Of a DNA stretch of 64,000 nucleotides, positions 1,381 through 62,037 are shown in pieces (position 1 is the first letter of the stretch; each line of letters opens with the position of its first letter). Made by a program: the position numbers and the translations under genes. Source of the DNA: Pirellulaceae bacterium (GTDB lineage Bacteria > Planctomycetota > Planctomycetia > Pirellulales > Pirellulaceae); NCBI GenBank assembly GCA_033762315.1, contig JANRLS010000079.1:11292-75291 (forward strand), read 5' to 3'. The notes under the pieces were generated by a model, which saw only the letters and a list, made by a program, of their open reading frames with translations, did not search any database and was not told where the DNA came from.

Positions 1381-1660
1381 GTCGATGAGCGGGAAACGGC
1401 AACCATGCCGAGGAGTTCCCCGCGCGAGCCACCTGGCGTGAAGGAGCTTGGTCGTCGTCGGATTCGCCCGCGGGGCGGAAAAAAAACTTCCCGAAATTTT
1501 GCCGGGGACGGAGATTTTTTGGGAACCTTTTGGGGGTCCAAAGCGTTCTATACAAATGGACGAATATGCAGTATTGTTTGGCACGGGCATTCAGTCGGCG
1601 ATGTTTGGCAATTTGGTGGGCGGTGAAGCGTTGTGAGTCCCCTCTGGCGAGGAGTTTTAA

Positions 1661-1863
1661 TACCAGGTTTCCAGAAACCCCCGTGTGTGGCCCTGGTGGA
1701 AACTGACGGCGGCGGCAAAGTGCGATTTTCGGGCGGATTTTGCGGGTTCGCGGCCGGGCAGGTTTCCACGGGGGTCGAAAGGGTGGAAACCAAGGTTAAG
1801 TGGAGGCTGAATAAGGACTTAGGTCACAAAATGGGGAGAAAAGGAGGGTGACGAGTGGAAACC
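1661..1863 (+). repeat. Non-coding modular element, copy 1 (GGTTTCC / GGAAACC units)
   Basis: The 22-mer TACCAGGTTTCCAGAAACCCCC (1661-1682) is identical to 35014-35035. GGTTTCCAC (1761-1769) and GTGGAAACC (1783-1791) form a hairpin. Another GTGGAAACC at 1855-1863 starts 72 nt after the previous one, the same offset as in copy 2. No credible ORF. Confidence 0.7.
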
Positions 1864-1870
1864 TTTCGGG

Positions 1871-1945
1871 GAGTGAGTGGTGAGTAGGTGAGCGGTAGGT
1901 GAGATTGGTCATTGGTGCTTTGTCATTGGTCATTCCCTTGGTTGG
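1871..1945. repeat. Simple-sequence block: GTGAG-type units followed by TGGTCATTGGT-type units
   Basis: gagtgagtggtgagtaggtgagcggtaggtgag is followed by attggtcattggtgctttgtcattggtcattcccttggttgg, read directly from the sequence. Confidence 0.6.
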
Positions 1946-1981
1946 GGGCCGACCTCGCGGGGCGCGGCACGCTCGTCCAGC

Positions 1982-2114
1982 GGCTTATGGGAAGTCTTGT
2001 AACTATAGTAAACCGCCGGCCATTGCCGGGGCGAATAAGCGGGCAAGTGTTTGAGCGGCTCGTAGTTAGAAATCACTCGCTAACGTACGACCCTCCGCGC
2101 GGACAATAAGCGGC
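1982..2114 (+). repeat. Conserved non-coding element with ACTATAGT core, copy 1
   Basis: The 20-mer AAGTCTTGTAACTATAGTAA (1992-2011) matches 61758-61777 with one mismatch. GCAAGTG follows after exactly 31 nt in both copies. CAATAAGCGGC follows after 54 nt here and 52 nt in copy 2. GGCTTAT at the 5' end is complementary to ATAAGC at the 3' end. Confidence 0.65.
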
Positions 2115-2310
2115 GGGCGACCAGGAACCAGGAACAAGTTTGTTCCCGGCTAGTCGCAGGAGTAGTCGGCTATTCGCGGGCCACCTAGCGGGACCCGCGT
2201 CTCCCTCTCCCAGTCGCCGCGCGGCCACGCTACAACAAGGTGCTTAGTCAGGCCAGCAACGGGAGAGGCCTGGCGACGTGCTCACGGCAACCTGTGCGGG
2301 AAACCTCTCC

Positions 2311-3504
2311 ATGACTACCAACGGATCGCTCAATCGGAAGCTGCGGATGGCCCTCGTCGGCGGGGGGCAAGGGGCGTTTATCGGCCGCGTTCATGCCACG
2401 GCGGCGGTGCTCGACAACCGGGCCGCTTTGGTCGCGGGTTGCCTGTCGAGCAGTCCGGAAAAGGCCAAGGCGTCGGCACCCGATTACGACATCCCGGCCG
2501 AGCGGGCTTATGCGTCGATCGGCGAGCTGGTGCAAAAAGAGAAAGCCCTGCCGGCCGATCAGCGGATCGATTTCGTGAGCGTGGCCACGCCGAACCACAC
2601 CCACTTCGAGATCGCCAAGACGGCGGCCGAGGCGGGCTTCAACGTGATCTGCGATAAGCCGCTGACATTCGACCTCGCCCAGGCGGAGGCGCTCGCCGCC
2701 ACGGTCGAGAAAACCGGCGTGGTGTTTGCGGTCACGCACAACTACACGGGCTATCCGCTGGTGCGGCAAGCGCGGGAGATGATTCTGGCGGGGGAGTTGG
2801 GAGAGATCAACGCGATTCGCTCGTTCTACATTCAAGGCTGGCTGCGGACGCGGCTCGAAACCGGCGACCAGAAGCAGGCCGCCTGGCGGACCGATCCAAA
2901 ACGGAGCGGCGCGGCGGGGTGCTTCGGGGACATCGCCACGCACGCCTATAACCTGGCCCGCTACATGACGGGGCTCTTGCCGGCCGAGATCAGTTGCCAC
3001 CTCAAATCGTTCGAGGCGGGGCGCCAGCTCGACGACTACGGCACCGCCATCATCAAGTTCCAAAATGGCGCGCTGGGCACGGTGACGGCGTCGCAAATCA
3101 GCCACGGCCGCGAGAACGACCTGTTCATTGAAATCGACGGCACGAAGGGGGCGATTCAGTGGCGGCAGGAAGAGCCAAACACGCTAATTCTGCGGAAGAA
3201 CGGCCAGCCGCACCAGATTTATACGCGCGGCGGCGGGCCCTATTTGGGTCAGGCCGCCGCCGCCGCCAGCCGGTTGCCGCCGGGGCATCCGGAGGCGTTT
3301 TTCGAGGCGTTCGCGAACGTTTATCGGGCCGCTTACGACGCCATGATTTTGCGGGCCGAGGGGAAGAAATTCGAGCCGGTGAACACGGTTTATCCGAACG
3401 TGAACGACGGCGTCGAAGGGATGTATTTCATTCAGCAATCGGTGGCCAGCAGCCAGCAAAATGGGGCCTGGCTGCCGCTCGCGCACGGGCGAGCGAGGAA
3501 GTAG
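2311..3504 (+). CDS. Gfo/Idh/MocA family oxidoreductase
   Basis: N-terminal Rossmann motif [18 protein letters not shown]. The remainder fits the family ([17 protein letters not shown]). Start moved to the ATG at 2311 inside ORF 2278..3504. Confidence 0.85.
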
Positions 3505-3522
3505 GTAGTCCGCGGTCAGTTC

Positions 3523-3618
3523 GAAAACTTCGGGTGCCACGCCCAGGGCACGTGGGCGTGTCGGGGCGAAAGAACGGTACGCTCACGCCAGCGTGGGACG
3601 TGGCACCCAACCCGAAAA
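3523..3618. repeat. REP-like inverted-repeat element (GTGCCACG..CCCACGC/GCGTGGG family), two inverted copies
   Basis: The reverse complement of 3584-3618 is ttttcgggttgggtgccacgtcccacgctggcgtg, which matches 44392-44426 at 32 of 35 positions. A degenerate forward copy with an 8-bp hairpin cacgccca/tgggcgtg lies at 3538-3560. Confidence 0.7.
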
Positions 3619-3631
3619 CTTTGGTTGGACG

Positions 3632-3649
3632 ACGCCCTGGGGCGTTTTT
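3632..3649 (+). terminator. Weak intrinsic-terminator-like hairpin plus T-run downstream of the oxidoreductase gene
   Basis: acgcc-ctgg-ggcgt followed by tttt. The stem is only 5 bp. Confidence 0.35.
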
Positions 3650-3707
3650 CGCCGGCCGATTATCGGGGATAATTTCAGTTCCGCAACAGCTCGCTCAGGA
3701 AGTTCGC

Positions 3708-4927: not shown

Positions 4928-6862
4928 TTACGGCTCGATTCCCAGCCAAATCCGCGACGACAGCACGAGCCGCTCGGCACTCGAGAGGGCTTGCCAGTCG
5001 CCGCGAACCCGAATCGCGAGGTCCGGGTCGCTCGTCATGAGATTATCGACGCCGCGCTGCAAAAAGCGCGACATTTGCCGCGGGTCGTTGACCGTCCAGA
5101 CATGCACTTCGCGCCCTTGCCGCTGGGCCCGCGCGAGCAGATCGTCGCTCAGAAAATCGGCCCGCACGCTGAGCGCATCCACGTCGAGCCGCGAAAGGTC
5201 TCCCACGGCCTGCGCCACGATCAGCCCCGTGCGCTGCCGCGGATTGAGGCGGCGGGCTTCGCGGCAATCGGCGAGGTGAAACGAAGTGATGAGACACTGA
5301 TCGGCGAAGTCCGCATCGCGCACAACCGCCGTGACGGCGGCGGCGAGAGTCCGGTCGGTGGCGGTCGATTTCAGCTCGATATTGAGCCGCAGTTCGCCCC
5401 GGCAGAGGTCGATCGCCTCGGCGAGCGTGGGCACGCGCTCGCCCGTGAATTGCGAGCCGAACCAGCGGCCGACATCGAGCTGCTTGAGCTGAGCCAGCGA
5501 AACCTGATCGATCCGCCGCGAGTCGCTGGCGACGCGCCGCAGGTCGCGGTCGTGCAGCAGCACCACCACGCCGTCGGAGGTTTGTCGGGCATCGATCTCG
5601 GCATAGTCCGCGCCGCTGGCGATGGCGGCGCGCAGCGCGGCGAGGGTGTTTTCCGGCGCGGCGCGGGCGTGTCCGCGGTGGGCCGTGATTCCCACCGGCC
5701 GGGGCTCGGGGACGAGCCACGGAAGTTCGATCCAAATGATGAGCGGCAAGAGCACGACGCCGGCGAGCAGCGTGCCGACGATGCGTCTCGGCCACGGTCC
5801 GGCGGCGGCGGGTTCCTCGGCAGGAGCGGGAGTTGGCGGCGGTCCGCACTGCTGGCGGGCGGCCAGATAGAGCCGGCGCGTCAGCAGGGCGAGGCCGATC
5901 ATGAGGACGAGCGAACTGGTGGCCAGAAGGAGCGCTTGCCCGGCGAGCAACATGGCGATCAGCCAGACCGGCGTCGTTTCGCCCCAGTCGAGCAGCAGCG
6001 CGGCCAACCAGCGATAGGCGGCCGTCACGCCGGTGGCCGCCGCGAACCAAATGGCCAGCCAGCCGCCGAGAATGAGGAGGATTCGCCAGAAGGTTCCGCG
6101 AGTCAGCTCGCGACTGGTGCGGCAGGCGGCGCGCACCGATTGCCCCTCGAACAGAACCACGGGGAGCGCGAGCGACCAGCGGACCTGCAGCCAGGTCGAG
6201 AGGATGGTGCCCACCGCGGCGAGGACCGTGCCGATGCCGACGGCCAGCCAGAATTCCGGAGGCCGCTTTTGCCAGTAGAAATAGATGTCGTACCTCGTCA
6301 GCAGCAGTTGCCAGGTGAATGCCGCCGCGATGGCCAGCGGGATCGCCCCCGCGGCGAGCACGACCAATTGCAGCGCAGCGAAGCGGGTCACGCGCCAAAC
6401 ACCGAGCAGCAGCCGGCTGGCCGCTGGGCGCGAAGCGCCATCCCAGGCGGCCAGGGCCATGATCGCCGCTTGCTCGATGAGGAACACGCTGAGCCACAAC
6501 AGCGCGAGGAGCGCCGCCGCCGCCAGCCCGAGCGGCGAAAGCACGGCGTCGAGCAGTTCGCGATTGCTGACCGCTACCCGCCCCGACCGAGACAGGAGCA
6601 GCGCCAACACGAGCGCCGCGGCCGGGGCGACGAGCCAAGCCTCGACGAACTTGGCCCCCAATTGAAACAACACCAGCCGCTTCCACGCCGCGCGGAAGTC
6701 GTCCGCCGCGCGGCGGCAAAGCTCCAAGACCGTCGCGGATTCGGTGCCGCGATCGACAGCCAGGGGATTGCTTTCGAGGTCAGTGTCGGACGGTCTAATG
6801 CTTGTGTTCCGCGCCGGCCGGGGTGAATTCGACGGTGAAGGGCTTGCCGTTGATCGTGACAT
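4928..6862 (-). CDS. Membrane-anchored glycerophosphodiester phosphodiesterase (GDPD) family protein
   Basis: C-terminal GDPD motifs ITAHRGHARAAPENTLAAL and AEIDARQTSDGVVVLLHD follow a long multi-TM N-terminal domain. The start is uncertain. The ATG at 6862 overlaps the upstream gene by 68 nt, and an in-frame TTG at 6727 would remove the overlap. Confidence 0.8.
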   Translation of the reverse strand: MSRSTASPSPSNSPRPARNTSIRPSDTDLESNPLAVDRGTESATVLELCRRAADDFRAAWKRLVLFQLGAKFVEAWLVAPAAALVLALLLSRSGRVAVSNRELLDAVLSPLGLAAAALLALLWLSVFLIEQAAIMALAAWDGASRPAASRLLLGVWRVTRFAALQLVVLAAGAIPLAIAAAFTWQLLLTRYDIYFYWQKRPPEFWLAVGIGTVLAAVGTILSTWLQVRWSLALPVVLFEGQSVRAACRTSRELTRGTFWRILLILGGWLAIWFAAATGVTAAYRWLAALLLDWGETTPVWLIAMLLAGQALLLATSSLVLMIGLALLTRRLYLAARQQCGPPPTPAPAEEPAAAGPWPRRIVGTLLAGVVLLPLIIWIELPWLVPEPRPVGITAHRGHARAAPENTLAALRAAIASGADYAEIDARQTSDGVVVLLHDRDLRRVASDSRRIDQVSLAQLKQLDVGRWFGSQFTGERVPTLAEAIDLCRGELRLNIELKSTATDRTLAAAVTAVVRDADFADQCLITSFHLADCREARRLNPRQRTGLIVAQAVGDLSRLDVDALSVRADFLSDDLLARAQRQGREVHVWTVNDPRQMSRFLQRGVDNLMTSDPDLAIRVRGDWQALSSAERLVLSSRIWLGIEP

Positions 6863-33856: not shown

Positions 33857-34651
33857 ATGTTACCGGCGTTTTCGAGAATTTCCGTTCACCAGGCAGCGGG
33901 AGTGGCGCACGTGGGGGTTTGGACCGAAGAATTGGTGGGAGGGCATCCGTGCGACCTCTTTCTCCCCAGCCGCCGCAGCCCGCACGGGTATGTCGCGCTC
34001 TATCTGCACGGCGTCCACCTGAACCGCCTGCACGATAAGGGCCCCTTTATCGAGCAATTCGAGCGGCACGGCCTGGCGGTTGTTTGCCCGCACACGCAGC
34101 GCAGCTGGTGGACCGATAAAATCTGCGAAGAATTCGACCGCACCATCTCGGCCGAAAAGCATCTGTTAAAAAACGTGCTGCCGTTCATCGAGCAGCGACT
34201 CGGCGCCAAGCCGCCGCGGATCGGCCTCTTGGGAACCAGCATGGGAGGCCAAGGAGCCTTGCGACTGGCCTATAAACACCCGAATGTGTTCCCCGTTGTC
34301 GCGGCCATTTCGCCGGCCATCGATTTCCATAAGCGCTACAACGAAGGGGACGAGACGATTCCGCAGATGTATCCCGATCCCGAAGCGGCCCGACAAGACA
34401 CGGCCCTGTTGCACATTCACCCGCTGAATTGGCCGCGGAACCAGTTTTTTTGCTGCGACCCGACCGATTACCGCTGGCACGAAAGTGCCGACCGCCTGCG
34501 GATGAAACTCTGGTCGCTCGGCGTCCCTCACGAATGCGACCTTGCAACCACCGGCGGCGGCCACGGCTTCGAGTATTACAACCGCATGGCCGAACGGGCC
34601 GTGGGATACCTGGCGGAAAAACTGGATGAAGAGCGGAGGAGGATTGGGTAG
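33857..34651 (+). CDS. Esterase-family alpha/beta hydrolase
   Basis: ATG at 33857 inside ORF 33683..34651. Nucleophile elbow GTSMGGQGA. Layout is esterase D-like. Confidence 0.75.
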   Translation: MLPAFSRISVHQAAGVAHVGVWTEELVGGHPCDLFLPSRRSPHGYVALYLHGVHLNRLHDKGPFIEQFERHGLAVVCPHTQRSWWTDKICEEFDRTISAEKHLLKNVLPFIEQRLGAKPPRIGLLGTSMGGQGALRLAYKHPNVFPVVAAISPAIDFHKRYNEGDETIPQMYPDPEAARQDTALLHIHPLNWPRNQFFCCDPTDYRWHESADRLRMKLWSLGVPHECDLATTGGGHGFEYYNRMAERAVGYLAEKLDEERRRIG

Positions 34652-35013
34652 CGGCTAGTCGGAGGGACGGGTGCTCGTTTCGGCGGCGCACAGCCGCCCC
34701 AATTTCTTGACCAGACTAGTCACGGGTGGGAAAAAGTTTGGCGCGACTTAGGGCGAGAGGGAGTGGCGTAAGTGGTTGCGGGACAAGAGGCTACGCCGCG
34801 GGGCCGCGACGTAAGTGGTCGAGGCCGCGGAAATCCGCGCGCAAGATCCTTGACGTGTGCATGTTTTTTACAGAGGATAAGACAACTTCTGTTCACATTC
34901 TGGAGGTCCCTGGCGGAGTGCCGCGCCGTGTTCCTATCAGCGAGCGAGAAGTTTCGCGCGACCGCTGCCGGGGGTTCGACCATACCGAGAACCACTCTTA
35001 CGGGTGATAAAAC

Positions 35014-35297
35014 TACCAGGTTTCCAGAAACCCCCCTAGGTGGCCCAAATGGAAACCAGTTCGCCGACTTTGGCCCCTTGGGAGGGGATTCCGACTCTGG
35101 CCAAAGCCTCGCTGCAAACCTTTGCCATTGCAGCAGTTAGGGCGAAAGAGCGGCTCGCGTTCGCTCGTCAGATCGACCAGCCACCGCGAGCGCAGGTTTC
35201 CAGGCAGGCCACTTTCGTGGAAACCAACGGTAACTCGTTGTCCGACAACAGGTTAACAGCGTTTTTCTTGCCAAGCCGGCAAACGTCCGTGGAAACC
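35014..35297 (+). repeat. Non-coding modular element, copy 2 (GGTTTCC / GGAAACC units)
   Basis: Same 22-mer as copy 1 at 35014-35035. Followed by GTGGCCC..GGAAAC. Hairpin GGTTTCCA (35195-35202) / TGGAAACC (35218-35225). GTGGAAACC at 35217 and again at 35289, a 72-nt offset. Confidence 0.7.
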
Positions 35298-35325
35298 AGA
35301 ACGGGCGGCGATTGCCATTCGCGGC

Positions 35326-36396
35326 TCATGAGCTGGCGCGACACGCCGCGAGCAGCTGTGCGGGAACGGCCAGCGATTGGGCACAGTCCGCGAGCTCGCG
35401 CCAGGTGTTGTCGTCGAGCTCGATGCCACGGGCACCGCGCTCAGCGCGGTGGCGGCGCTCGACATCGCCGGGGACGAGAATCTCGGCCGTGGGGTTGGCT
35501 TTCTCCGCGCTTTTGACGAAATCGAGAAAGCGCCGCACGTCGTCCAGAAAATGATCTCCCACCTGAAACACGCACGGATCGAGCAGGATCGAGAGCATCC
35601 CCTGCTCCAGCCGGGTTTTGCCGGGGGCCGAGCAGCCGCCGCCGGTGAGCGCGCCGGCCAGAATTTCGGCGACGATTCCGAGGCCATATCCCTTGTGCCC
35701 GCCAAACGGCAAAATCGCGCCGGGAGGATCGGCATAGAAAACTCGCGGATCGCGGGTCGGGTTGCCCGCCGCGTCGATGATGCACCCCTCCGGCACGGAG
35801 ACTCCCTTGTTGAACGCCACCTTCAGCTTTCCTTCGGCCACCGACGCGGTCGAAATGTCGTAGATAATCGGTTCGCCACCGGCAACCGGAATGCCCGCCG
35901 CCACCGGATTGGCCGACAATCGCCGACTAATGCCGCCGACCGGAGCGACGAGCAGCCCCAGGCCGCTGGTGTTCACGAAGTGCAGCGAAACCAGCCCCGC
36001 GGCGACCGCCATTTCGGCCCAATGGCCAACGCGGCCGACATGCCCGCTATTGCGCAGCGATACGACCGCCACCCCGCCACGGCTGGCCTTTGCGATGCCG
36101 AGTTGAATTGCCTGCTGGGCGATGGATTGCCCCAGACCAAGTTGCCCATCGACGACGGCGAGGGTGTCGTTTTCAAAGAGCACCTTCAGTCGCTGGTTGG
36201 CCAGCACCTTCCCCTCGGCGAGCCAGCGGACATAGGTCGGCGCGCGAATGACGCCGTGCGAATCGTGCCCGGTCAGGTTGGCCTGCACCAAATGGTCGGC
36301 CACGACTTGCGCCTCGTCGGCAGCGCAGCCCGCGGCGGCGAAAATCGCGGTCGTCAGGTTTTGCAGCGGCTGCGGCGGCGCGCGAAAGAAGGACAT
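35326..36396 (-). CDS. Ldh family (malate/L-lactate dehydrogenase type 2) oxidoreductase
   Basis: Start at MSFFRAPP. LTGHDSHGVIRAPTYV and GGHKGYGLG motifs. Confidence 0.85.
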   Translation of the reverse strand: MSFFRAPPQPLQNLTTAIFAAAGCAADEAQVVADHLVQANLTGHDSHGVIRAPTYVRWLAEGKVLANQRLKVLFENDTLAVVDGQLGLGQSIAQQAIQLGIAKASRGGVAVVSLRNSGHVGRVGHWAEMAVAAGLVSLHFVNTSGLGLLVAPVGGISRRLSANPVAAGIPVAGGEPIIYDISTASVAEGKLKVAFNKGVSVPEGCIIDAAGNPTRDPRVFYADPPGAILPFGGHKGYGLGIVAEILAGALTGGGCSAPGKTRLEQGMLSILLDPCVFQVGDHFLDDVRRFLDFVKSAEKANPTAEILVPGDVERRHRAERGARGIELDDNTWRELADCAQSLAVPAQLLAACRASS

Positions 36397-36490
36397 GACG
36401 AAATCCAAGAGCGGGACGGAACCGCGGGACGGATTGCGAAGTATCTTGCCGCGCGAAGTGCATTGGGTCGATAGCCGAATGCCGCAGACC

Positions 36491-36580
36491 CTCACCCCGT
36501 CCCTCTCCCCGAGGGAGAGGGAGAAGATGCGGCAAACGCTCACCCCGGCCCTCTCCCCGAGGGAGAGGGAGAGGGAGAAG
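36491..36580. repeat. Tandem pair of REP-like hairpins CCCTCTCCC-CGA-GGGAGAGGG
   Basis: Perfect 9-bp stems at 36501-36521 and 36549-36569. The flanks ctcaccccg(t/g) repeat with a 48-nt period. Lies between the DUF1501 stop and the Ldh start. Confidence 0.75.
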
Positions 36581-36588: not shown

Positions 36589-37884
36589 TTACACCAACTC
36601 GGAGATGGCCCGGCCCTTCTCGAGCATGAAGATGGGGCGACCGGCGGTGCTTTGGAATTGCACTTTCGGGTCGATGCCGAGGACGTGAAAGATCGTCGCC
36701 ATGAGGTCTTGCGGGCCGATGGGCTGGCTGGCGGGAACATCGACCTTCGGGGCCGATTCGCCGATGACCTGCCCCATTTTGAGGCCACCGCCAGCGAGGG
36801 CGAGCGTGCTGAGAGGTGCCCAGTGATCGCGGCCGGCATTTTTGTTGACGCGCGGCGTGCGGCCGAATTCGCCGCTGATGACGAGCAGAATTCGCTGGTC
36901 GAGCCCGCGCTCGTGGATGTCTTCGACGAACGCCGAGACCGCCTGATCGAGTTGCGGGCTGCGCTGGGTCATGCTCCGTTCGATGTTGCCGTGCATGTCC
37001 CAGCCGCCGTAGGAGATCGTCACGAAGCCGCAGCCCGCTTCGCACAGGCGGCGGGCGGTCAGCAGTTGAGCGCCGAGCCCTTCGCCATAGCGCTTGATCG
37101 TCTGGCTGCTTTCCTGGCGATAGTCGAAGGCTTGGGCCGAACTTCCCAGCACGAGGTTGAACGCTTGCTGCTCGAATTTTTTAACGCCGGCATTGTCGAG
37201 GACTCGCTTTTGGGCATCGAGCCCTTCGAGCAGATTGCGGCGGTCGGCGAGGCGTTCTTCGGGGAGCGAGAGCTCCATGCTCTTGCGGGCCTGACCATCT
37301 TGATCGAACGGGTTGTAGGCGTGGCCGAGAAACGCCGCCCCGCCCCCTTGGCGAATTTCTCCCATGCGGACATACGTCGGCATGCCGGTGACGGGGTGGC
37401 TCGCGCCGCGAACGCGGGCCAAAATCGAGCCGTGTCCCGGCCGGCTGGGGACGCCGCCGTTATCGACCATCCGGTTGTCGTAGCCGGTGTTGACATAGTG
37501 CGTGCCGCCGCCGTGGCCGCTGTTGGTATGGGCAAACGAGCGGACGAAGGCCATCTTGTCGGCGACGCTGGCGATTTTCGGCAGCGTGCCGCCGAGCGTG
37601 ACGCCGGGGATTTTCGTCGCCACTTCGCCCGTGGTGCTGCGATACTCGGACGGGGCGGTCATTTTCGGATCGAAGGTTTCGACGTGCGTCGGCCCCCCCG
37701 CCAGCCACAACCACACCACTGCCGTATCCTTCACGAGGCTCCCCGCCTGAGCCGCGTTGGCCCGCGCCTCCAACAGGGCCGGCAAAGTCAACCCGCCGAG
37801 GCCGAGCGCGCCCACCTTCAGAAACTCGCGCCGCGTGGCACCGTCGCAATCACGAAATCGGCGATTGGAAACGACCTGGAACAT
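36589..37884 (-). CDS. DUF1501 domain protein (sulfatase-like, Tat signal)
   Basis: Start at MFQVVSN. TRREFLKVGALGLGG. GRDHWAPLSTLALAGGG. Confidence 0.88.
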   Translation of the reverse strand: MFQVVSNRRFRDCDGATRREFLKVGALGLGGLTLPALLEARANAAQAGSLVKDTAVVWLWLAGGPTHVETFDPKMTAPSEYRSTTGEVATKIPGVTLGGTLPKIASVADKMAFVRSFAHTNSGHGGGTHYVNTGYDNRMVDNGGVPSRPGHGSILARVRGASHPVTGMPTYVRMGEIRQGGGAAFLGHAYNPFDQDGQARKSMELSLPEERLADRRNLLEGLDAQKRVLDNAGVKKFEQQAFNLVLGSSAQAFDYRQESSQTIKRYGEGLGAQLLTARRLCEAGCGFVTISYGGWDMHGNIERSMTQRSPQLDQAVSAFVEDIHERGLDQRILLVISGEFGRTPRVNKNAGRDHWAPLSTLALAGGGLKMGQVIGESAPKVDVPASQPIGPQDLMATIFHVLGIDPKVQFQSTAGRPIFMLEKGRAISELV

Positions 37885-37952
37885 GGCTGGCTCCTGGCTG
37901 GCAAAAGGTGGTGGGGCGATCGGCGTCCCCCAGGGGGTATCGACCAATACCT

Positions 37953-37986
37953 GCTTGATACATCAAATATAGTTGATATGTCAAGC
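37953..37986. promoter_or_regulatory. AT-rich imperfect 34-bp palindrome with TTGAT/ATCAA half-sites upstream of DUF1501 gene
   Basis: gcttgatacatcaaatatagttgatatgtcaagc. About 70-100 nt upstream of the start at 37884 and conspicuously AT-rich against GC-rich flanks. Confidence 0.45.
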
Positions 37987-38022
37987 TGCGCGGCGCGCGA
38001 TTCTTGGCCCGCCAAGACGGCC

Positions 38023-38922
38023 CTACCGCAAGCCCTCGGCCGAGACCTCGACGCTGGCCGGCTGCACCGTGGAGCCGCCCAGCGGCGGAAGGTCGGCCAG
38101 GAATTGATCGAACGCGACCCGATATTCTTCGGGCTGCGGATCGTTGTGCTTGCCGCCCGAGACCGTGATCAGCTTCTTCGGACCGGGCGCGGCCTGATAG
38201 AGCGCGAGCCCTTGCTCATACGGAATCACCTCGTCCGCATCGCCGTGGCTCAAAAGCAGCGGCCCGCGATAGCTTTTGATCTTTTCGAGCGAGTTCATGC
38301 GGTGAGTCATCAGCCAGCTCATCGGCAGATAGGGGAGATGATGCTGGGCGACATCCGGCAGCGAGGTGAACGTGCTGGCCAGCACCAGGCCTCGCGCGCC
38401 GTCCTGCGAAGCCAGATCGACCGCCACGCCCCCACCCAGCGACAGCCCCAAAAGCAGCACGTCGCTCTCGGCAATCCCTTCTTTCTCGGCCAGCCACTTG
38501 CGAGCCGCGCGGGCATCGAGCAGCACTCCCTGTTCGCTCGGCTTTCCTTCGCTTCGCCCATAGCCGCGATAGTCGAGCGCGAGAACCGCCAGGTTGTGGC
38601 GGCGATTCAAGATGCGGAGTGTCTCGGCCAGGATCGTGATGTTCCCCGCGTTCCCATGCAGAAACAGGGCGTGCGCCTTGGGCTCCGGATGCCGCACGTA
38701 CCACCCATGCAGCTTGACTCCATCCGCGCTGGTGAAGTAGGCGTCGTTCACGAGCACGGTGGTCGGCTGCCAATCGCCAGTGGGATATTTCTGCGGCTGG
38801 AAGATGCTCTTCCGCTCGGAGCTAGCCAGGGGCGAATAGCTGCCGAGCATGGCGCAGCCGCTAGCATGGCAGAGCCACGAGGTGGCCAGCGCCAACAGCG
38901 CGAGTTGCGGGCAGCGGTTCAC
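38023..38922 (-). CDS. Alpha/beta hydrolase lipoprotein
   Basis: Lipobox-like HASGC. LFLHGNAGN and the nucleophile elbow GLSLGGG. Confidence 0.8.
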   Translation of the reverse strand: MNRCPQLALLALATSWLCHASGCAMLGSYSPLASSERKSIFQPQKYPTGDWQPTTVLVNDAYFTSADGVKLHGWYVRHPEPKAHALFLHGNAGNITILAETLRILNRRHNLAVLALDYRGYGRSEGKPSEQGVLLDARAARKWLAEKEGIAESDVLLLGLSLGGGVAVDLASQDGARGLVLASTFTSLPDVAQHHLPYLPMSWLMTHRMNSLEKIKSYRGPLLLSHGDADEVIPYEQGLALYQAAPGPKKLITVSGGKHNDPQPEEYRVAFDQFLADLPPLGGSTVQPASVEVSAEGLR

Positions 38923-38994
38923 GATCGGGGCTTCCCCACGGGGCGACGATCCTTCGTTCGCGGGGGCGAAGAGTATCCGGCCGGCGACCGCGGG

Positions 38995-40536
38995 TCAACG
39001 CGAAGTTGCTGGCCGGGACAAATCGGTCGTGCGGCTCAAATCGGCGACGTTCGCCGCCTCCCCTTCTTGCACGCAAACCCGATTGCGCCCCTGATTGACG
39101 GCCGTCTGCAACGCCTTGCGGGCCCGCTCCAGAATCCGCCGCAGGTCGTCTCCCGGGCAGGCTTCGACCACGCCCAGGCTGATCGTGAACCAATTGGCCC
39201 CCGCCTTGCGCGGCAAGCGGCAACGCTCGACCGCCCCCCGCAGACGTTCGCCAATCAGCACCGCGTCGGCGATGTGCGCCCCTGGCAGCAGCATGGCGAA
39301 GGTGTCGTCTCCCAGGCGAGCGACGTGGTCCATGTCGCGCATCACGGCATTGACGAGCTGCGCGGTGACGCGGAGCACCACGTCCCCCGCGCTGGTTCCG
39401 TTGTCGCCGACGATCCGCTCGAAGCCATCGACCTGCAAGAGCATCAGCGCCAGCGGCGAGCCGCCGCGCCGCCACTGCGAAAGCCGGCGAATCATGTCGT
39501 CGAAAAAGACCGGCCGGCTCGAGACGTGCGCGAGTGGCTCGCGCTGGCACGACTCGGCCGCGTCGGCTTCGTAGAGCCACTCGTCGCCGATGCGCTCGGG
39601 CGTGGCGGTGACGATCGGCGTTTGGGCATCGAGCTTCACGAGATGATTGCTGCGGCCGTCACTATAGTGCGCGCAGTTGCGGCCAGCGCTTTTGGAGGCA
39701 TAGAGCGCCTCGTCGGCCCGGCGCACCAGGTCTTTCTCGGTCTCGTCGGGCATCAACTCGGCGAGCCCGGCACTCGCGGTGACTTTCAGTTGCTTGCCCG
39801 CGAACTTGAACAGGGTGCCGGCAATCGCCTGGCGAGCCTTTTCGGCCTGGGCCATGATCTGCCGCACGCCCAGCCCCGCGAACACGGCGGCGAACTCCTC
39901 GCCCCCATAGCGGGCGACCAGGCCCCCCTCGCCAATGTTCGCGCGGAGCACGCGGGCCACGCCGCGGAGCACCTCGTCTCCCGCCTGATGACCGTGCGTG
40001 TCGTTGAATTTCTTGAAGTGATCGACATCGATCAGCATGATCGCCGCCGGACTGCCGCGGCGTTGCTGCTCGGCCACGCAGCGGCGGATTTCGTCGTCGA
40101 GCGCCCGCCGATTGGCCACCTGCGTCAGGGCGTCGGTGCGGGCTTCGACCGCGTGCGATTCAATCTGCCGGGCCTGGGCTTGCAGCCGCTCTTCGGCCGT
40201 ATCGAGCTGCCGCTGCATCCGGGCATTGGCATCGATCAGTTGAGCGACGGCCGAAAGAACCGCCGATTCGTCGTTGTCTCCGTCGGGGTCGGCCAGTTGG
40301 GCGTTGATCTCTTGCACTTGCGAGCTGTGTTGATCCACGTCGGCCGCCACGCGGCTCGTCAGCTCTTGCAGCCGGGCCAGCGTTTCGCGGGCAAAGCGGG
40401 CCTCGGCATCTTCGAGCGGCGCGGCGCGCGCGCGAATCCGCCGGCGCAGGGCGAGCCACGCCAGCCCACAGGCAGCGCACAGCGTCGCCAGCAGCAGAAA
40501 AATGGAAACCAGCGTCGTCATCAGGGTGCCGAGCAA
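38995..40536 (-). CDS. Membrane-anchored diguanylate cyclase with tandem GGDEF domains (active + degenerate)
   Basis: N-terminal TM plus coiled coil. Domain 1 has RYGGEEF. Domain 2 has RLGDDTF preceded by RDMD. Confidence 0.85.
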   Translation of the reverse strand: MLGTLMTTLVSIFLLLATLCAACGLAWLALRRRIRARAAPLEDAEARFARETLARLQELTSRVAADVDQHSSQVQEINAQLADPDGDNDESAVLSAVAQLIDANARMQRQLDTAEERLQAQARQIESHAVEARTDALTQVANRRALDDEIRRCVAEQQRRGSPAAIMLIDVDHFKKFNDTHGHQAGDEVLRGVARVLRANIGEGGLVARYGGEEFAAVFAGLGVRQIMAQAEKARQAIAGTLFKFAGKQLKVTASAGLAELMPDETEKDLVRRADEALYASKSAGRNCAHYSDGRSNHLVKLDAQTPIVTATPERIGDEWLYEADAAESCQREPLAHVSSRPVFFDDMIRRLSQWRRGGSPLALMLLQVDGFERIVGDNGTSAGDVVLRVTAQLVNAVMRDMDHVARLGDDTFAMLLPGAHIADAVLIGERLRGAVERCRLPRKAGANWFTISLGVVEACPGDDLRRILERARKALQTAVNQGRNRVCVQEGEAANVADLSRTTDLSRPATSR

Positions 40537-40659
40537 GGGATCGATGGCGAGACTATCCGCCCTAGGAGTGACATAGGTTGTCTGGGGACCAAGTCAACCC
40601 AAACGGAGCCAAATCGGTGGGACTGTGCCAATTGTGCGGACAATCGCCGCCACGCCGCA

Positions 40660-42000
40660 CTACGCGCCGGGCGCGGTTCCCAGCAGCTGCCCCGTTTTCG
40701 ACACGCGATAGAGCGCGTGCCCGCCGGGGGCGATTCCCTGCAGCTTGCCGGCGGCGTCGCGCGATTGGCCATACACGACAAACACCCGAAATTCGTCGGC
40801 ACCCTCGGTCCCCTCGCAATCGAACGGCAAGCCGCCGCCGGACTCGCGCACGGCCGCTTGCTTGACGATTTCAATCGCCGCGGCCAGCGTGATGGGGGGA
40901 TTCGCATAGGCCGCCTGCTGAATGGGCGCCGATCCCGGCAGCACATTCGGCGGCGGCAAGGCGTTGGCCGGGGGCGAGGCATATCGTGGCGCGGGGGCGA
41001 GTGGGCTGATCGCCGGCCGCGCGGCGACTTGCGCGAGCGCCACTTGCACCACCTTCTGCTGCTCGTTCAACAGCCGCTGCGTCTTGCGATAGTCGCTGTC
41101 GGCATAGGCGGCGATCGCCTGATCGAGTTGCTTTTTGGCACCGGCGAAATCGCCGCCAGCCGCGCTGGCGAGGGCCAGGTTGTGCAGGGCGGCGTGATTG
41201 CGGGGATTGTCTTTCAGAGCGGCTTGCCAATCGGCCGCCGCGCCGGGCCAGTTTCCCTTGAGGGCCTTAGAGTTTCCCTTGCGCAGGGCGGTGAGGCCGT
41301 TCCCCCAATACTGCCGCGCGAGCCGCACCTCGACCGGCGCCCTATGCGGGGCGATCATCGCCACCACGTCGCGCGAGCATTGGTTGAGCAGCTCCCCCAG
41401 CACGCGCTCTTGGCCGGGCAAATCTCCCTGGCCGTTGAGCACCTGTCCTTCGAACGAATGCGAGGTCTGGCGGGCGGCTCGGATTTCGCCGGTGCGGGCG
41501 TCGATCAGCTTAATGGCGAGCGAGACGGTCGCCTCGCGCGAGAGCAGGGTATTCGTATCGATGCCGATGCCCAGGCTGCTGCCGCGGCCAAGCGGACCGC
41601 TCGACTGGCCGCCGCCGAGGCTGATGTGCTGGTCGGTCTGCTTCTGGTCGGCCACGTTGTAGCTGACGACCTGGCCGGTCAAAATCGCATCGACCCCGCT
41701 GTGCCGGGCCGCCTGCACGAGGGCCGCTTCGTTCGGCTGACCTTGAACGAACGCCGCCGGCAGGACGCGGGCCAGTTCCCCCTGATCGACCAAGGCATAG
41801 TGGCGATTTTCGGAAAGCTGGGCGAGCAGCACCGACTTGGCGATTTTGCCTGCTTCTCCTTCGCCCTCGAAATCAACCACCGCCAAGCGGCCGATCCCCG
41901 ACACGTCGAACTCCGCCGGGCGCAGCACCAGCATCTGGGCTCGCGGCGCGCAGCCCGTGGCCGCGGCGAGTATCAGGAGTAGATAGCAAGACTCGCGCAT
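40660..42000 (-). CDS. Lipoprotein with CsgG/LpoB-like N-terminal domain and TPR repeats
   Basis: Start at MRESCYLLLILAAATGC (lipobox). RLAVVDFEGEGE...ALVDQGELARVL pattern. TPR-like WQAALKDNPRNHAALHNLALA. Confidence 0.65.
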   Translation of the reverse strand: MRESCYLLLILAAATGCAPRAQMLVLRPAEFDVSGIGRLAVVDFEGEGEAGKIAKSVLLAQLSENRHYALVDQGELARVLPAAFVQGQPNEAALVQAARHSGVDAILTGQVVSYNVADQKQTDQHISLGGGQSSGPLGRGSSLGIGIDTNTLLSREATVSLAIKLIDARTGEIRAARQTSHSFEGQVLNGQGDLPGQERVLGELLNQCSRDVVAMIAPHRAPVEVRLARQYWGNGLTALRKGNSKALKGNWPGAAADWQAALKDNPRNHAALHNLALASAAGGDFAGAKKQLDQAIAAYADSDYRKTQRLLNEQQKVVQVALAQVAARPAISPLAPAPRYASPPANALPPPNVLPGSAPIQQAAYANPPITLAAAIEIVKQAAVRESGGGLPFDCEGTEGADEFRVFVVYGQSRDAAGKLQGIAPGGHALYRVSKTGQLLGTAPGA

Positions 42001-42288: not shown

Positions 42289-42759
42289 TTAGGGGAAATT
42301 CGTTGTGGTACGGGCCTCGTCCGGCATTCGTGGCGTTTTGCCGAATCGCTTGAGTGCCGACCGCACCCAGCCGGCGTTTTGCCGCCATTCCTCGCGCGAG
42401 CGGGCGAAGAGGTCGCAGCGCCGGCGAAAGGCGGCCCAGCCACCCGCCAGCAAGATTGCCGCCAGCACCACTCCCGCGAGCAGGCTCACGCCCAAGGATT
42501 GAGCGAGCGACAGGGTCGTGGTTTCGTCGATCCAAAGGGCGAGTGCCGCCAGACCCACGGGGATGCAACCCACGGCGAGCAGCAACCCCGCGGCGAAACA
42601 CAGTGCCGGCATCGCCAGCCTCGCCACCCCTTGCTGCGCATCGACCGCCAGCAGGCGAACCTGCAATTCGCCCAGCGTGAGCAAGTCTTCGAGCAGTTCG
42701 CCGGTGCTCCGGGCAACCGCTCGCGGCGGCGCTTCAGCGCGCGGCGCTGAACCATTCAT
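42289..42759 (-). CDS. Holin-X / YqjE-like (phage holin family) membrane protein
   Basis: LGELQVRLLAVDAQQGV followed by two TM segments, typical of the superfamily-III holin-X layout. The start overlaps the upstream stop (ATGA at 42756-42759). An alternative ATG lies at 42777. Confidence 0.65.
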   Translation of the reverse strand: MNGSAPRAEAPPRAVARSTGELLEDLLTLGELQVRLLAVDAQQGVARLAMPALCFAAGLLLAVGCIPVGLAALALWIDETTTLSLAQSLGVSLLAGVVLAAILLAGGWAAFRRRCDLFARSREEWRQNAGWVRSALKRFGKTPRMPDEARTTTNFP

Positions 42760-42962
42760 GTGCGTTTGATCCACCATGCCAAGGTCGCTCCGATTGCAAA
42801 GGCCGACGCCAGGCTGGCGCCGGGATGTTCGACAATCCACGCTTCGGCATTCGCCACGAGCGACTGCCAAGCGGCAATCCGGGGGCCGGCTGCCGAGCGC
42901 TCGACATCCGCGGATGTCGTGGGTTCGGAAACTGGCTGGTATTCGCTAGTAAAGTTGGGCAT
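42756..42962 (-). CDS. Small membrane protein (68 aa)
   Basis: Start at MPNFTSE. C-terminal TM ASLASAFAIGATLAWWI. Translationally coupled on both sides. Confidence 0.5.
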   Translation of the reverse strand: MPNFTSEYQPVSEPTTSADVERSAAGPRIAAWQSLVANAEAWIVEHPGASLASAFAIGATLAWWIKRT

Positions 42963-43389
42963 CGGGCTGCTCCTCGGTTTCGGCGGCGGGGCTTTCGGAC
43001 GGCATGACCCGGTTTTGCAGTTGCTGTTGCAAGTGCTGCGACAGGAGGGCGAGTCCCCCTTGCAGGAGCGAACCGACCGCCATCCGCGCGAGCATGGCCG
43101 TGAGCGAAGGCCCTCGCGCCGGTTGGCTCGCGGTGGCCACGCTTTGGACAAGCTCGCGGAGGGTGGTGGCGTCGGGCTGAACGAAGCGAGTCGCCTTGGA
43201 GGGAATCAGGAGGTATCCCGCGGCTGCCGCCGCGCCGACGCACACCCACGGATAGGCTCGCACGTAGGACTGCCAAGCGGTCAGCACTTGCGTGCTGGCG
43301 ACGAGCTCTTGCACGTCTTCGCGCAGCTCGGCGCGCACGGCGCGCATCTGACGCTGAATTTCGTCGGCGGGCATGGTGGCGTGCGACAT
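42946..43389 (-). CDS. DUF3618-like membrane protein
   Basis: N-terminal ADEIQRQMRAVRAELREDVQELV resembles the DUF3618 helix, followed by TM WVCVGAAAAAGYLLI. Confidence 0.55.
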   Translation of the reverse strand: MSHATMPADEIQRQMRAVRAELREDVQELVASTQVLTAWQSYVRAYPWVCVGAAAAAGYLLIPSKATRFVQPDATTLRELVQSVATASQPARGPSLTAMLARMAVGSLLQGGLALLSQHLQQQLQNRVMPSESPAAETEEQPDAQLY

Positions 43390-43399
43390 CGGACTTGCC

Positions 43400-43672
43400 C
43401 TACGAATGGAACCGCGCGGCGACCGACGCCGGCAGCACGCTGCTCAGGGCGTCGTAGGCCTGGCGGCTTAGCCGCTCGGTGGTCGTCGGCTCGTGATAAG
43501 CCATGCTCAGGAGCGGGCCGGCACACGCCTGCCCCACCAGCACGCCGATGCCGAGCCCCACGCCAAACACCAGCAGCAGGGACGAGACCGGATACTCCCG
43601 CACCAATTCGGCCGGCTGCTCGGCCGCGTGGCGCAGGCGACTGCGAATGCGATTTACTTCCTTGGCGACCAT
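43400..43672 (-). CDS. Small membrane protein (90 aa)
   Basis: Amphipathic N-terminus, then TM VSSLLLVFGVGLGIGVLVG. Confidence 0.55.
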   Translation of the reverse strand: MVAKEVNRIRSRLRHAAEQPAELVREYPVSSLLLVFGVGLGIGVLVGQACAGPLLSMAYHEPTTTERLSRQAYDALSSVLPASVAARFHS

Positions 43673-43725
43673 GATCGGAACTCCTTCAAATCGTCGAGTA
43701 AACTGACGGAAGATTGCCGGCGGAT

Positions 43726-44145
43726 TTAGCGGCCGCGGAGCGTGAGGCCGAGCAGCACTCCGACCACCATCCCCACGCCGAAGCAGACGGCGATCGACTC
43801 GCCCGGCCGCTCGCGAACCATTTTCTCGGCCTCTTCATAGCCGTGGCGCATGGTTTCGGCGGCTTTTTTGGTCGATTCCTGCATCGCGCCGGCAGCTTGC
43901 TGGGCGTAGTCGCGCACCGATTCGGCCGCCTGACCCAAGGTCGAGGCTCCGTTGGAAGTGAGCTCTTCCAAGTAGTGCTCGATCGTGCCGCGAGCTTCCC
44001 CCGTTTTTCGCTGAATGGTGCCGACGAGTTGATCGACGTTGCCGTCGAAGGCTTGCAGATCGTCGCCGGTGAGCTGACCCCACTTCGAGCGAATCCGGCC
44101 TTTGATTTCGTTCCAATTGCCCCGCAGGGTTTGTTGATTGACCAT
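43726..44145 (-). CDS. CsbD-like domain fused to a DUF883/ElaB-YqjD-like membrane-anchored tail
   Basis: GNWNEIKGRIRSKWGQLTGDDL...LVGTIQRKTG is the CsbD signature. The C-terminal MVRERPGESIAVCFGVGMVVGVLLG is an ElaB/YqjD-type anchor. Confidence 0.75.
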   Translation of the reverse strand: MVNQQTLRGNWNEIKGRIRSKWGQLTGDDLQAFDGNVDQLVGTIQRKTGEARGTIEHYLEELTSNGASTLGQAAESVRDYAQQAAGAMQESTKKAAETMRHGYEEAEKMVRERPGESIAVCFGVGMVVGVLLGLTLRGR

Positions 44146-44391
44146 GACAACTACTCCTTTGCATGTAAGAAATCGAGCCGCTTGGTTAGCGGAGAGAGTC
44201 TCGATTCAGGGAGCAATCGCCGTGCCAACCGTGCCGCTCAAGCGGATCGCGAGGGTGAAAAGCGTGGTTTCACCATTGATCGTGGCTCTCGGTGTGGTTC
44301 CAGCCGATAACTCGATGGTCATTGGCGTTCGCCGCGCGGACAGCCTGGTCGCCCAATGACCACGGGTGGCTTGTGCTCCGTCAAACCAGAA

Positions 44392-44435
44392 TTTTCGGGG
44401 TGGGTGGCACGACCCACGCTGGCGTGGGCGTGGCA
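44392..44435 (+). repeat. REP-like hairpin element, same family as 3523-3618
   Basis: ttttcggggtgggtggcacgacccacgctggcgtgggcgtggca. The stem cccacgc/gcgtggg extends by gcac/gtgc across a 1-nt bulge. Lies between the crp-family stop and the stress operon. Confidence 0.7.
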
Positions 44436-44477
44436 GCCGAGCTTTTCGAGTGGACCGAGCACTCGCTGCCACCCGCG

Positions 44478-45206
44478 CTACGTCGCCTGGCGCGGTTCGC
44501 AGATCAAGCGATCGAACTGGCGCGAAATCGCCTGCTGGCATTCGCACGCGGCACGCTCCAGGCGCGGACGGTCGAGCACCGAGACGACTCCGCGGCGATG
44601 TTGAATCAGCCCTTCGGCCTGTAGCGGACGGAGCACGTCGGTGACGCTTGCCCGCCGCACGCCGAGCATTTGCGCGAGCGACTCGTGCGTCACCGGAATT
44701 TCGGTGGCGCTTGAACGGTCGAGACACCGCAGCAGCCACCGGCAGCAACGTTGCTGCACCGAATGGAGCCCGTTGCAGGCCACGCTCTGCATCACTTGCC
44801 CCAGGAATGCCGCGCTATAGCGGTGCAGCAATCGCCGCAGGGCCGTTCCCTCGGTCGCCGCCGCGAGCAGCACGGGGGCGGTCGCGAGATACGCCAGCCC
44901 CTCGATCTGCACGAAATACCGCTGCTCGACCGTCTCGCTCCCCGTCACGATGGCCAGCCCCGTCATCCCTTCGTTCCCGACCGTGGCGACTTCGATCTGG
45001 CTGCCGTCGTCCAGCACGTTCACGGCTGAAATCAGCCCCTGCTCGACGAAATACGCCTCCACAACCGGCCGGTGCGGTTCTTGAATCACTTGCCGCGCGG
45101 CGAGCGGCACCAGGTTCAGTTCCGGCCGCAGCCGCTGCCACTCGGCCGCCGGCAGGTTGGCCAGCAGGCAATTTTTGGGGCGCTGGTTCTCGGCAGATAG
45201 CCACAT
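44478..45206 (-). CDS. Crp/Fnr family transcriptional regulator
   Basis: Start at MWLSAEN (gggag 7 nt upstream). cNMP-binding-like beta-roll, then HTH THESLAQMLGVRRASVTDVL. The ORF-track entry 44478..46097 is an antisense over-extension. Confidence 0.85.
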   Translation of the reverse strand: MWLSAENQRPKNCLLANLPAAEWQRLRPELNLVPLAARQVIQEPHRPVVEAYFVEQGLISAVNVLDDGSQIEVATVGNEGMTGLAIVTGSETVEQRYFVQIEGLAYLATAPVLLAAATEGTALRRLLHRYSAAFLGQVMQSVACNGLHSVQQRCCRWLLRCLDRSSATEIPVTHESLAQMLGVRRASVTDVLRPLQAEGLIQHRRGVVSVLDRPRLERAACECQQAISRQFDRLICEPRQAT

Positions 45207-45485
45207 GATAAATCTCCCTTCGCGCGGCAACCTCCGTCCGCCGCCCAAGCGCCGCGCGAGCGCGGAGCTTGCGCGGCGAGAAGAAAGGCGCGCAAGATCA
45301 ACTCGAATGTCGAAATTACCCCTGGGTGGTGAGAACGAGGGGGCAACTAGCGTGCCAAATGCCAGCGGTTGCGGACCCAAGTCAATCGACCGGCGACTGA
45401 ATCTCGCCCGTCCGCCAGGCAGGGATCGGCCGCCCTTCGTGCCGCTGGCTGGACGAAATCCCCGCCGGCTGCCAAAACAAGGGGC

Positions 45486-61163: not shown

Positions 61164-61191
61164 CGCCGACTGGAAGCAAACAACGACACGG

Positions 61192-61222
61192 AAAGGCCAG
61201 GCCAGCAGGGCTTGGCCTTTTC
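61192..61222 (+). terminator. Intrinsic terminator after the YHS-like gene
   Basis: aaaggccaggcc-agcag-ggcttggccttt (12 bp including one G-U), followed by tc with the T-run partly inside the stem. Confidence 0.6.
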
Positions 61223-61599
61223 TGGTTGGTGAAAGGCCTGAACGCACTCCCTGGAGCTACCGCCGGGAGAGAAAAGGGGGGGAGAGAAAAGGGGACAGGT
61301 CCAATAGGCTCCCCCCACCAGCATCGCGACGCGCGGACGGTGGGTCGAGCCTACCCTACTTTGCTTGGGAACGAGGGGGGGAAATCTTCAAGTGTTTGCC
61401 GGGCAGCGAGTTACGACGATTTGAGCGACCGGGATGAGTCTTGAACACGCGCAGCGCGTGACCAGACGTGTCACGGCAGCGAAAAATTTTGGGCGATGCG
61501 TGGGGCGATGGAAACGCCGTTAGTGTACATATTTATTGTATTAAAGGTGGCGCATCTTCCCTTACGAATTCCCGCCAAAAAATTCCGCGCGCTAGTTTC

Positions 61600-61628: not shown

Positions 61629-61736
61629 ACGTCCGATCGTGGCGATTGCCGCCTCACGGCCAGGAATTGGGAGGAGATCAGGTTCCCGGGCACCGAGCCT
61701 CAAGACGCGCCGCGCCTCGCCGCCCCCCAGCTCGCG

Positions 61737-61878
61737 GGCTTATTGGAGGCGGGTCAAAAGTCTAGTAACTATAGTAAGGCGACAGTAATGCGAGGCTCGA
61801 CTAATTACGCAAGTGCTTGCCGGGCTCGGACTTGCGGAGAATTCACCCGGCGCGACTTTTCGCGCGTCAATAAGCGGC
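61737..61878 (+). repeat. Conserved non-coding element with ACTATAGT core, copy 2
   Basis: See copy 1. GGGCTTATTGG at the 5' end is complementary to CAATAAGC at the 3' end (8 bp). Confidence 0.65.
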
Positions 61879-62037
61879 CCATCCCCCACTCGACAGGCGA
61901 TCCGCCCGCCTAGGGGTTCGCACGCGCGAATCTCGGCACGCGAGTTGCCGGTAATCTCGGTCGCCGGCAGCGGGGATGTTGCGCGTCCCTGAGTGGCACT
62001 TCGCCAAGCCGACCTCTTCTCTCCAAAGGAGGCCCCG

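Follow-up and report, generated by a model that had tools for sequence, protein, structure and literature searches.

MITE-like repeats, such as ERIC/IRU of enterobacteria, Correia/NEMIS of Neisseria and RUP of pneumococcus, are non-coding intergenic elements of about 100–155 bp with inverted-repeat ends, and their presence varies between related genomes. ERIC and Correia elements are imperfect palindromes overall. Correia elements carry -10-like and protein-site-like AT-rich sequence, and their terminal repeat is about 26 bp long. BIMEs of E. coli and BOX elements of S. pneumoniae are built from short units in varied combinations, with a fixed order and orientation, and they enlarge a few spacers. 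The sRNA families Qrr1-5 and PrrF1/2 consist of unlinked intergenic paralogues in which a promoter-like core and an internal stretch are kept. REP/RAYT classes are defined by a GTAG or CGTC tag (PMC3733652).

The DNA analysed here is a 64,000-nt stretch of a Pirellulaceae genome, called the window below. Two of its long spacers each hold a full copy (A and B) of a non-coding element. Like the MITE-like repeats, this element is intergenic, 133–142 nt long and present or absent between related genomes, and it is bounded by a short inverted repeat that may be a terminal repeat. Like Correia elements, it carries -10-like and protein-site-like AT-rich sequence. The differences are that its putative terminal repeat is only 8 bp, that no target duplication is visible, that it is no overall imperfect palindrome (z ~0), that its two observable copies are 68% identical, which is low for an active MITE family, and that it has no known partner transposase. 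The modules found in the same spacers resemble BIME and BOX units in their combinations, order and orientation and in the few spacers they enlarge, but they are longer (35–140 nt) and far more diverged. Inspection by eye found no GTAG or CGTC tag of the REP/RAYT kind in the element. The literature searches gave nothing on such elements in planctomycetes beyond one general REP survey. We tentatively take copies A and B to be a lineage-specific intergenic repeat module of the MITE/BIME kind. This is the best explanation we have, held at somewhat less than even confidence. A repeat of this kind is ordinary.

Two homologous copies and their boundaries

A sequence-only reading of the window had described two paralogous non-coding elements that share conserved islands. 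Its sequence statements were exact for the islands and their spacings, and the homology was significant. Copies A and B are truly homologous paralogues (Table 1). They are 68% identical overall. The blastn alignment of copy A with copy B covered 127 nt at 67% identity, with an E-value of 5e-4 against the window plus the fetched loci and about 1.5e-10 against the 9.2 kb of intergenic DNA in the window. The island AAGTCT(T/A)GTAACTATAGTAA is identical at 19 of 20 positions. Its 13-mer GTAACTATAGTAA occurs at two sites only in 64 kb, even with 2 mismatches allowed, and two matches appeared in none of 100 shuffles. GCAAGTG starts exactly 31 nt past this island in both copies, and CAATAAGCGGC follows GCAAGTG after 54 nt in copy A and 52 nt in copy B. 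Both copies open with GGCTTAT, which is complementary to the 3'-terminal ATAAGC. Islands 3-4 recur once more, as a partial third copy, 420 nt before copy B; this stretch matches copy B at 15 of 16 positions, with an nhmmer E-value of only 1. The copy number within the window is two full copies and one partial copy.

Table 1. Coordinates of copies A and B, their parts, neighbouring repeat modules and predicted gene promoters in the window
Feature	Position	Strand	Remarks
Copy A	1982..2114	+	133 nt; inside 930-nt spacer between CHAT/PDZ gene (7-1380) and Gfo/Idh/MocA gene (2311-3504)
Left boundary inverted repeat, copy A, GGCTTATGGG	1982..1991	+	complementary to 2104-2111
Island 2, copy A, AAGTCTTGTAACTATAGTAA	1992..2011	+	includes 8-bp palindrome ACTATAGT and -10-like TATAGT without -35 partner
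Internal direct copy of the copy A right repeat, GAATAAGCGG	2033-2042
Islands 3-4, copy A, GCAAGTGTTTGAGCGGCTCG	2043..2062	+
Right boundary inverted repeat, copy A, CAATAAGCGGC	2104..2114	+
Copy B	61737..61878	+	142 nt; inside 874-nt spacer between YHS-domain gene (60717-61163) and 156-aa gene (62038-62508)
Left boundary inverted repeat, copy B, GGCTTATTGG	61737..61746	+
Island 2, copy B, AAGTCTAGTAACTATAGTAA	61758..61777	+
Islands 3-4, copy B, GCAAGTGCTTGCCGGGCTCG	61809..61828	+	GCAAG-TG-CTTGC near-palindrome
Right boundary inverted repeat, copy B, CAATAAGCGGC	61868..61878	+
Partial third copy, islands 3-4, CAAGTGTTTGCCGGGC	61389-61404		same spacer as copy B
Family 1, copy A spacer	1639-1703 and 1758-1799 (also 1855-1863)	+	paralogous to next row
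Family 1, second occurrence	34992-35056 and 35192-35233 (also 35289-35297)
Family 3, copy B spacer	61459-61525 and 61581-61614	+	paralogous to 34708-34774 and 34831-34864
Predicted Gfo/Idh/MocA proximal promoter box, CGCTACAACAAGG	2229..2241	+	115 nt downstream of copy A
Predicted sigma-54-type promoter, CGGCACGCGAGTTGC (box GGCACGCGAGTTGC)	61934..61948	+	56 nt downstream of copy B

Local alignments of the flanks outside the two copies were no better than those of shuffles (p = 0.30 upstream and 0.19 downstream), so the boundaries drawn in the sequence-only reading are right, and the unit starts and stops at the short inverted repeat. The complementarity of GCTTAT and ATAAGC was confirmed, and the homology ends there. 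The putative terminal inverted repeat GCTTATTG...CAATAAGC is only 8 bp long, or at best 9/11, and in both copies GCTTAT(T/G)G and CAATAAGC coincide exactly with the edges of the homology. Direct reading found no consistent direct repeat beside copy A or B that could be a target-site duplication. Decay in old copies could explain this absence.

The clustering of matches into islands was assessed by column permutation of the A/B alignment at 68% identity. Three statistics were computed: the longest run (p = 0.19), the sum of squared run lengths (p = 0.04) and the number of runs of at least 6 (p = 0.02). The matches are only modestly more clustered than random, so the islands are weak evidence of selection and no proof alone.

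Coding potential, RNA structure and promoter signals

The element is non-coding. A small protein was considered and rejected: a 40-codon ORF (1987-2109) exists in copy A only, copy B has the islands in a different frame, and the gaps between the copies measure 11, 1 and 1 nt.

The sequence-only reading had suggested a leader or riboregulator for the downstream genes and had recognised no known riboswitch. The Rfam search bore out the latter statement. Nothing reached the gathering score in the whole window, and relaxed searches, to E = 10 around each copy and to E = 1 in the three long spacers, gave nothing relevant. Against dinucleotide shuffles, the folds of the two copies had z-scores of -0.14 and -0.29 (+ strand) and -0.99 and -0.86 (- strand). 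Two-sequence consensus folds over about 140 nt were weak (-9.8 and -8.9 kcal/mol), and most of their pairs were invariant. On direct reading, the variable 31-nt segment has hairpins in differing registers in copies A and B. The folds of the two copies have no internal helix in common: a CUUGU/GCAAG helix that copy A forms at minimum energy is broken in copy B by a single T/A difference. Neither copy gave a thermodynamic or consensus-structure signal for a structured RNA.

These data bear on a structured cis-leader, that is, a riboswitch or riboregulator of 130–140 nt that would be closed by a GCUUAU/AUAAGC stem and would control the downstream genes. The position of the element upstream of plus-strand genes fits it, and the stem arms are conserved and pair in the minimum-energy fold of copy A. 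The arms are, however, identical in A and B, so there is no covariation. Of the closing stem proposed for a structure of about 130–140 nt, the complementary arms held up and the stem is possible, but fold stability and covariation did not appear. The sole likenesses to Rfam riboswitches and cis-leaders are the position upstream of genes and the possible closing helix; family match and structural signal are both lacking.

An operator combined with a promoter, with TATAGT as a -10-like hexamer, had been offered as the other suggestion. TATAGT alone agrees with the -10 consensus in 5 of its 6 bases. A consensus promoter scan of 1381-2320 and 61164-62050 found no -35/-10 pair (16–18-nt spacer) at either core, and the sole sigma-70-like site in the two spacers, TTGACG-17-AATAGT at 61600-61628, lies away from the core. 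The core motif is not a widespread promoter consensus, with two sites only in the window. Between them, these results neither bear out nor refute the operator-plus-promoter suggestion. If TATAGT were a -10, the 5' stem arm would be untranscribed, so the leader with its stem and the promoter are mutually exclusive.

No intrinsic terminator was found on the + strand between copy A or B and the next gene, though canonical ones occur in this genome (for example 61199-61218). Any transcript from the element would therefore read into the gene, which argues against a self-contained sRNA gene and would still be compatible with a distal promoter. AATAAGC occurs five times in 64 kb, and four of these sites lie within copies A and B. 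Palindromic islands are ACTATAGT, GCAAG-TG-CTTGC (copy B) and CGCGCG. These palindromes and the concentration of AATAAGC fit DNA-level recognition better than RNA.

The copies could accordingly be read as a DNA-level regulatory module. TATAGT would serve as the -10 of a distal promoter, ACTATAGT, GCAAG-TG-CTTGC and AATAAGCGG repeats would be operators for one regulator, and two unrelated operons would gain a second, co-regulated upstream promoter in this lineage. Each copy points the same way as the gene after it, and TATAGT precedes the ATG by 302 nt in copy A and by 263 nt in copy B. The palindromic or repeated half-sites, the fixed 31-nt spacing, the open path from element to gene and a motif that is no generic consensus all agree with such a module. 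Opposed to it are the missing -35 partner and the empty promoter scan at both cores, the different proximal promoters conserved in the clade (TGCTAcAAC and sigma-54), orthologous genes that manage without the element, and island conservation only marginally above random scatter. We regard this module as unlikely, although it is the strongest of the rivals.

Paralogous trans-acting sRNA genes of the Qrr or PrrF type would use the AT-rich core as promoter, GCAAGUGYUUG as seed and a 3' end near CAAUAAGCGGC. As in sRNA paralogues, the copies are unlinked and intergenic, a promoter-like core and an internal segment at fixed spacing are kept while the rest has diverged, and each copy would be an independent unit upstream of its neighbour's own promoter. 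Unlike Qrr1-5 and PrrF1/2, the element has no terminator, although the genome uses canonical ones, no recognisable full promoter or -35 box, no conserved hairpins or stable shared fold, and nothing detectably conserved in relatives or beyond the contig. The sRNA reading appears decidedly improbable.

Orthologous loci and promoters of the downstream genes

Orthologous loci were compared for the Gfo gene (L005 and L006, from one organism, L007, L008 and L013), the 156-aa gene (L009 and L015-L017) and the YHS gene (L014). Eight related orthologous contigs, seven of them independent, have spacers of 129–318 nt without the element. The upstream spacers of Gfo orthologues are 174–318 nt long, adjoin different genes (YebC, HNH and others) and show no trace of it. 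Spacers of the 156-aa orthologues (129–170 nt) also lack it, as does the 129-nt spacer after the nearest YHS orthologue. The element is thus present in the window and absent from the orthologous spacers examined. A profile built from the two copies found nothing by nhmmer over about 100 kb of related Pirellulaceae loci.

The wider collections gave a similar picture. The pattern AGTCTNGTAACTATAGTAA had 4 unrelated matches (a spirochaete, an archaeon, Romboutsia and Halalkalibacter) in one genome each for 185,579 species, and 0 matches in viral contigs. In JGI metagenomes the three-island pattern had 0 matches, and the two-island pattern had 3, on contigs of 27–41% GC with nothing else in common, which we judged to be chance. 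These genome and metagenome scans demand exact islands. A blastn search against plasmids gave 0 matches. For the window's Gfo/Idh/MocA protein, identity is 82–91% with Pirellulaceae MAGs and 84% with the named genus Anatilimnocola; even the closest public relative, at 91%, is thus 9% diverged in a protein that still shares 84% with that genus. As far as the collections of species genomes, metagenomes and relatives' loci allow, the element is not conserved outside this genome, an outcome that the sequence-only reading had listed as speaking against its proposal. A second such outcome, a mere promoter consensus upstream of many genes, was not what the window showed, with its two core sites.

Both downstream genes have predicted promoters of their own (Table 1). 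These lie downstream of the element, so copies A and B are upstream of the promoter and outside the stretch from promoter to ATG; the element ends 196 nt (copy A) and 159 nt (copy B) before the ATG. The oxidoreductase box is an extended -10, TGCTAcAAC, with a GCTAnAA core that is invariant in five genomes. Its variants are GATTTGCTACAAC (L005 and L013), GATTTGCTAAAAC (L008), AATCTGCTAAAAA (L007) and CCACGCTACAACA (window). The sigma-54 box upstream of the 156-aa gene is kept in L009 (TGGCACGCGGGTTGC) and L015 (TGGCACCCGGGTTGC). The 156-aa gene heads a cluster with an Hpt protein, and relatives have the same cluster with a CHASE3 histidine kinase. The sigma-54 box is predicted to serve an operon for the 156-aa protein, the Hpt protein and probably a histidine kinase. 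The products of the two downstream genes are functionally unrelated.

These loci weigh heavily on the cis-leader. The conserved promoters of the genes are downstream of the element, the orthologues do without it, the two genes are unrelated, and no structure signal was found. The suggestion of a leader or riboregulator of the downstream genes was therefore not upheld. It is already largely refuted, and we give it very little credence.

An enhancer for sigma-54 promoters was also considered, because copy B lies 56–197 nt upstream of such a promoter. As a general account it was rejected: copy A has no downstream sigma-54 site, and orthologous sigma-54 promoters lack the element.

Other candidate sites were seen near these genes and elsewhere. 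AGTCGGCTATTCGC is found at 2163-2178, about 50 nt downstream of copy A, and also in the oxidoreductase upstream region of L007 (9712-9727; Anatilimnocola sp. NA78); it may be a conserved regulator site. A CsbD-like gene (43726-44145, -) has a sigma-54-type box, TGGCACGGCGATTGC (44213-44227, -), 68 nt upstream. A perfect sigma-54 box, TGGCACGCTAGTTGC (45343-45357, -), lies within a Crp-HTH ORF (44478-46097).

Intergenic repeat families and gene order

An all-against-all comparison of intergenic DNA indicated that the three longest spacers of the window (1381-2310, 34565-35325 and 61164-62037; about 760–930 nt) share modules pairwise. Family 1 is shared by the copy A spacer and the 34565-35325 spacer, family 2 (the present element) by the copy A and copy B spacers, and family 3 by the copy B spacer and the 34565-35325 spacer. 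All modules are on the + strand, and one order, family 3, family 1, family 2, holds in the three spacers. Family 1 contains an inverted pair, CAGGTTTCCA...TGGAAACC, with variable centres of 13–25 nt. Its identity is 77% over 66 nt and 86% in a 43-nt core, with an exact run of 16 nt, and Rfam gave no match for it. Family 3 consists of the blocks GACCAGAC..GTCAC..GAAAAAnTTTGG and AAWTCCGCGCGC..CTTGACG. In the copy B spacer, its second block forms the sole sigma-70-like site mentioned above.

Gene order was compared with that of the relatives. In nearly all of them a different gene precedes Gfo. YebC adjoins the oxidoreductase in L005 and L008 and is found here at 49113-49835, 47 kb away. A holin-like gene adjoins the 154-aa gene in L015 and is found here at 42–43 kb (42289-44145, versus 62038). 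With these neighbours 18–47 kb away, the long repeat-filled spacers coincide with breaks in gene order.

The repeat reading draws on all of these results. The homology is significant and stops sharply at the inverted repeat; the unit is 133–142 nt long and has no shared reading frame. Orthologous contigs lack the element, the long spacers lie where gene order differs from that of relatives, and the element co-occurs with other pairwise-shared modules and with further intergenic repeat families in the window. RNA-structure signal and Rfam matches are missing, and island clustering is only marginal. On this reading, a non-coding repeat of some 135 bp, with an 8-bp inverted repeat at its ends, would be present in A and B as two old copies that have since diverged, and it would be one of a set of intergenic modules peculiar to the lineage of this Pirellulaceae genome. 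Transposition, or duplication of non-coding DNA through recombination, would have produced the copies, which would have no necessary role for the adjacent genes. The better-kept AT-rich or palindromic stretches would be former recognition sites or would reflect mild constraint, not RNA structure.

Several observations count against the repeat reading. Besides the differences from MITE-like repeats given above (two visible copies only, 68% identity, a short inverted repeat, no visible target-site duplication and no overall palindrome), no transposase or integrase is encoded in the window. The islands ACTATAGT and GCAAG-TG-CTTGC are palindromic, like protein-binding sites. The co-orientation of both copies with the downstream gene at similar distances, and the constant order and orientation of modules in three spacers, would agree with a functional unit as well. 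Such a unit, specific to this lineage, might comprise the element with or without families 1 and 3, and could be either a new regulon-type control region or a new (modular) ncRNA family of uncultivated Pirellulaceae. In the regulon-type version, an AT-rich palindromic operator and promoter would have been grafted before unrelated operons. To our knowledge, regulatory RNAs and promoters of the planctomycete phylum are little charted. We consider a new functional unit of either sort to be rather unlikely.

The two direct copies lie 59.7 kb apart, near the ends of the window, and their AT-rich core is identical over 13 bp, as might be expected of attL/attR-type direct repeats around an integrated element of 60 kb. 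Such repeats would have an exact core and unrelated arms, whereas here the similarity is spread over about 130 nt at 68%. No tRNA, transposase, integrase, phage or conjugation gene was found in the window, GC content is uniform at about 64%, and the genes of the interval, among them the conserved Gfo gene, are ordinary for planctomycetes. The att reading is extremely improbable. The order of the rivals is regulatory module, sRNA genes, cis-leader and att sites.

As it stands, the finding matters little: an uncultivated Pirellulaceae genome has several diverged intergenic repeat families. These repeats enlarge a few spacers and coincide with gene-order breaks, which makes them useful for annotation and for the study of planctomycete genome rearrangement, and a false riboswitch or leader candidate has been removed. 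The finding would matter more only if a regulated promoter or a discrete RNA were present at the ACTATAGT core.

Further repeats were noted in the window. One pair, 3507-3631 (+) and 44379-44463 (inverted), is 79–87% identical and has a CCCACGC-CAGC-GTGGG hairpin. The first copy comes just past the stop codon of the oxidoreductase gene and is followed by a terminator-like hairpin at about 3632-3652, and the second lies about 150–250 nt upstream of a perfect sigma-54 box. REP-like hairpin repeats with GGTCATTGG/CCAATGACC units occur at 1870-1934 and 44325-44370 and in L005 at 5865-5940. In the first of these, CCAATGACC hairpins (1904-1934) are preceded by GGTGAG heptad-like repeats (1870-1900). 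The motif is shared with a Pirellulaceae genome other than that of the window (GCA_964384375), so this small repeat is older and more widespread than the element of copies A and B. A tandem duplication at 36479-36572 has a 48-nt unit, with two 46-nt copies at 48-nt spacing that are 91% identical, and a CCCTCTCCCCGAGGGAGAGGG hairpin. It overlaps the 5' end of an Ldh_2 ORF (35326-36543, -) and lies just upstream of a 1776-aa ORF (36652-41982, +), which has coding-like composition and no Pfam domain at E-values up to 0.001. In the 930-nt spacer of copy A, a terminator-like hairpin, CCCGGCAAAATTTCGGG, is followed by a T-run (1490-1506, -). Since no minus-strand gene precedes this hairpin, an unannotated minus-strand transcript may cross that spacer.
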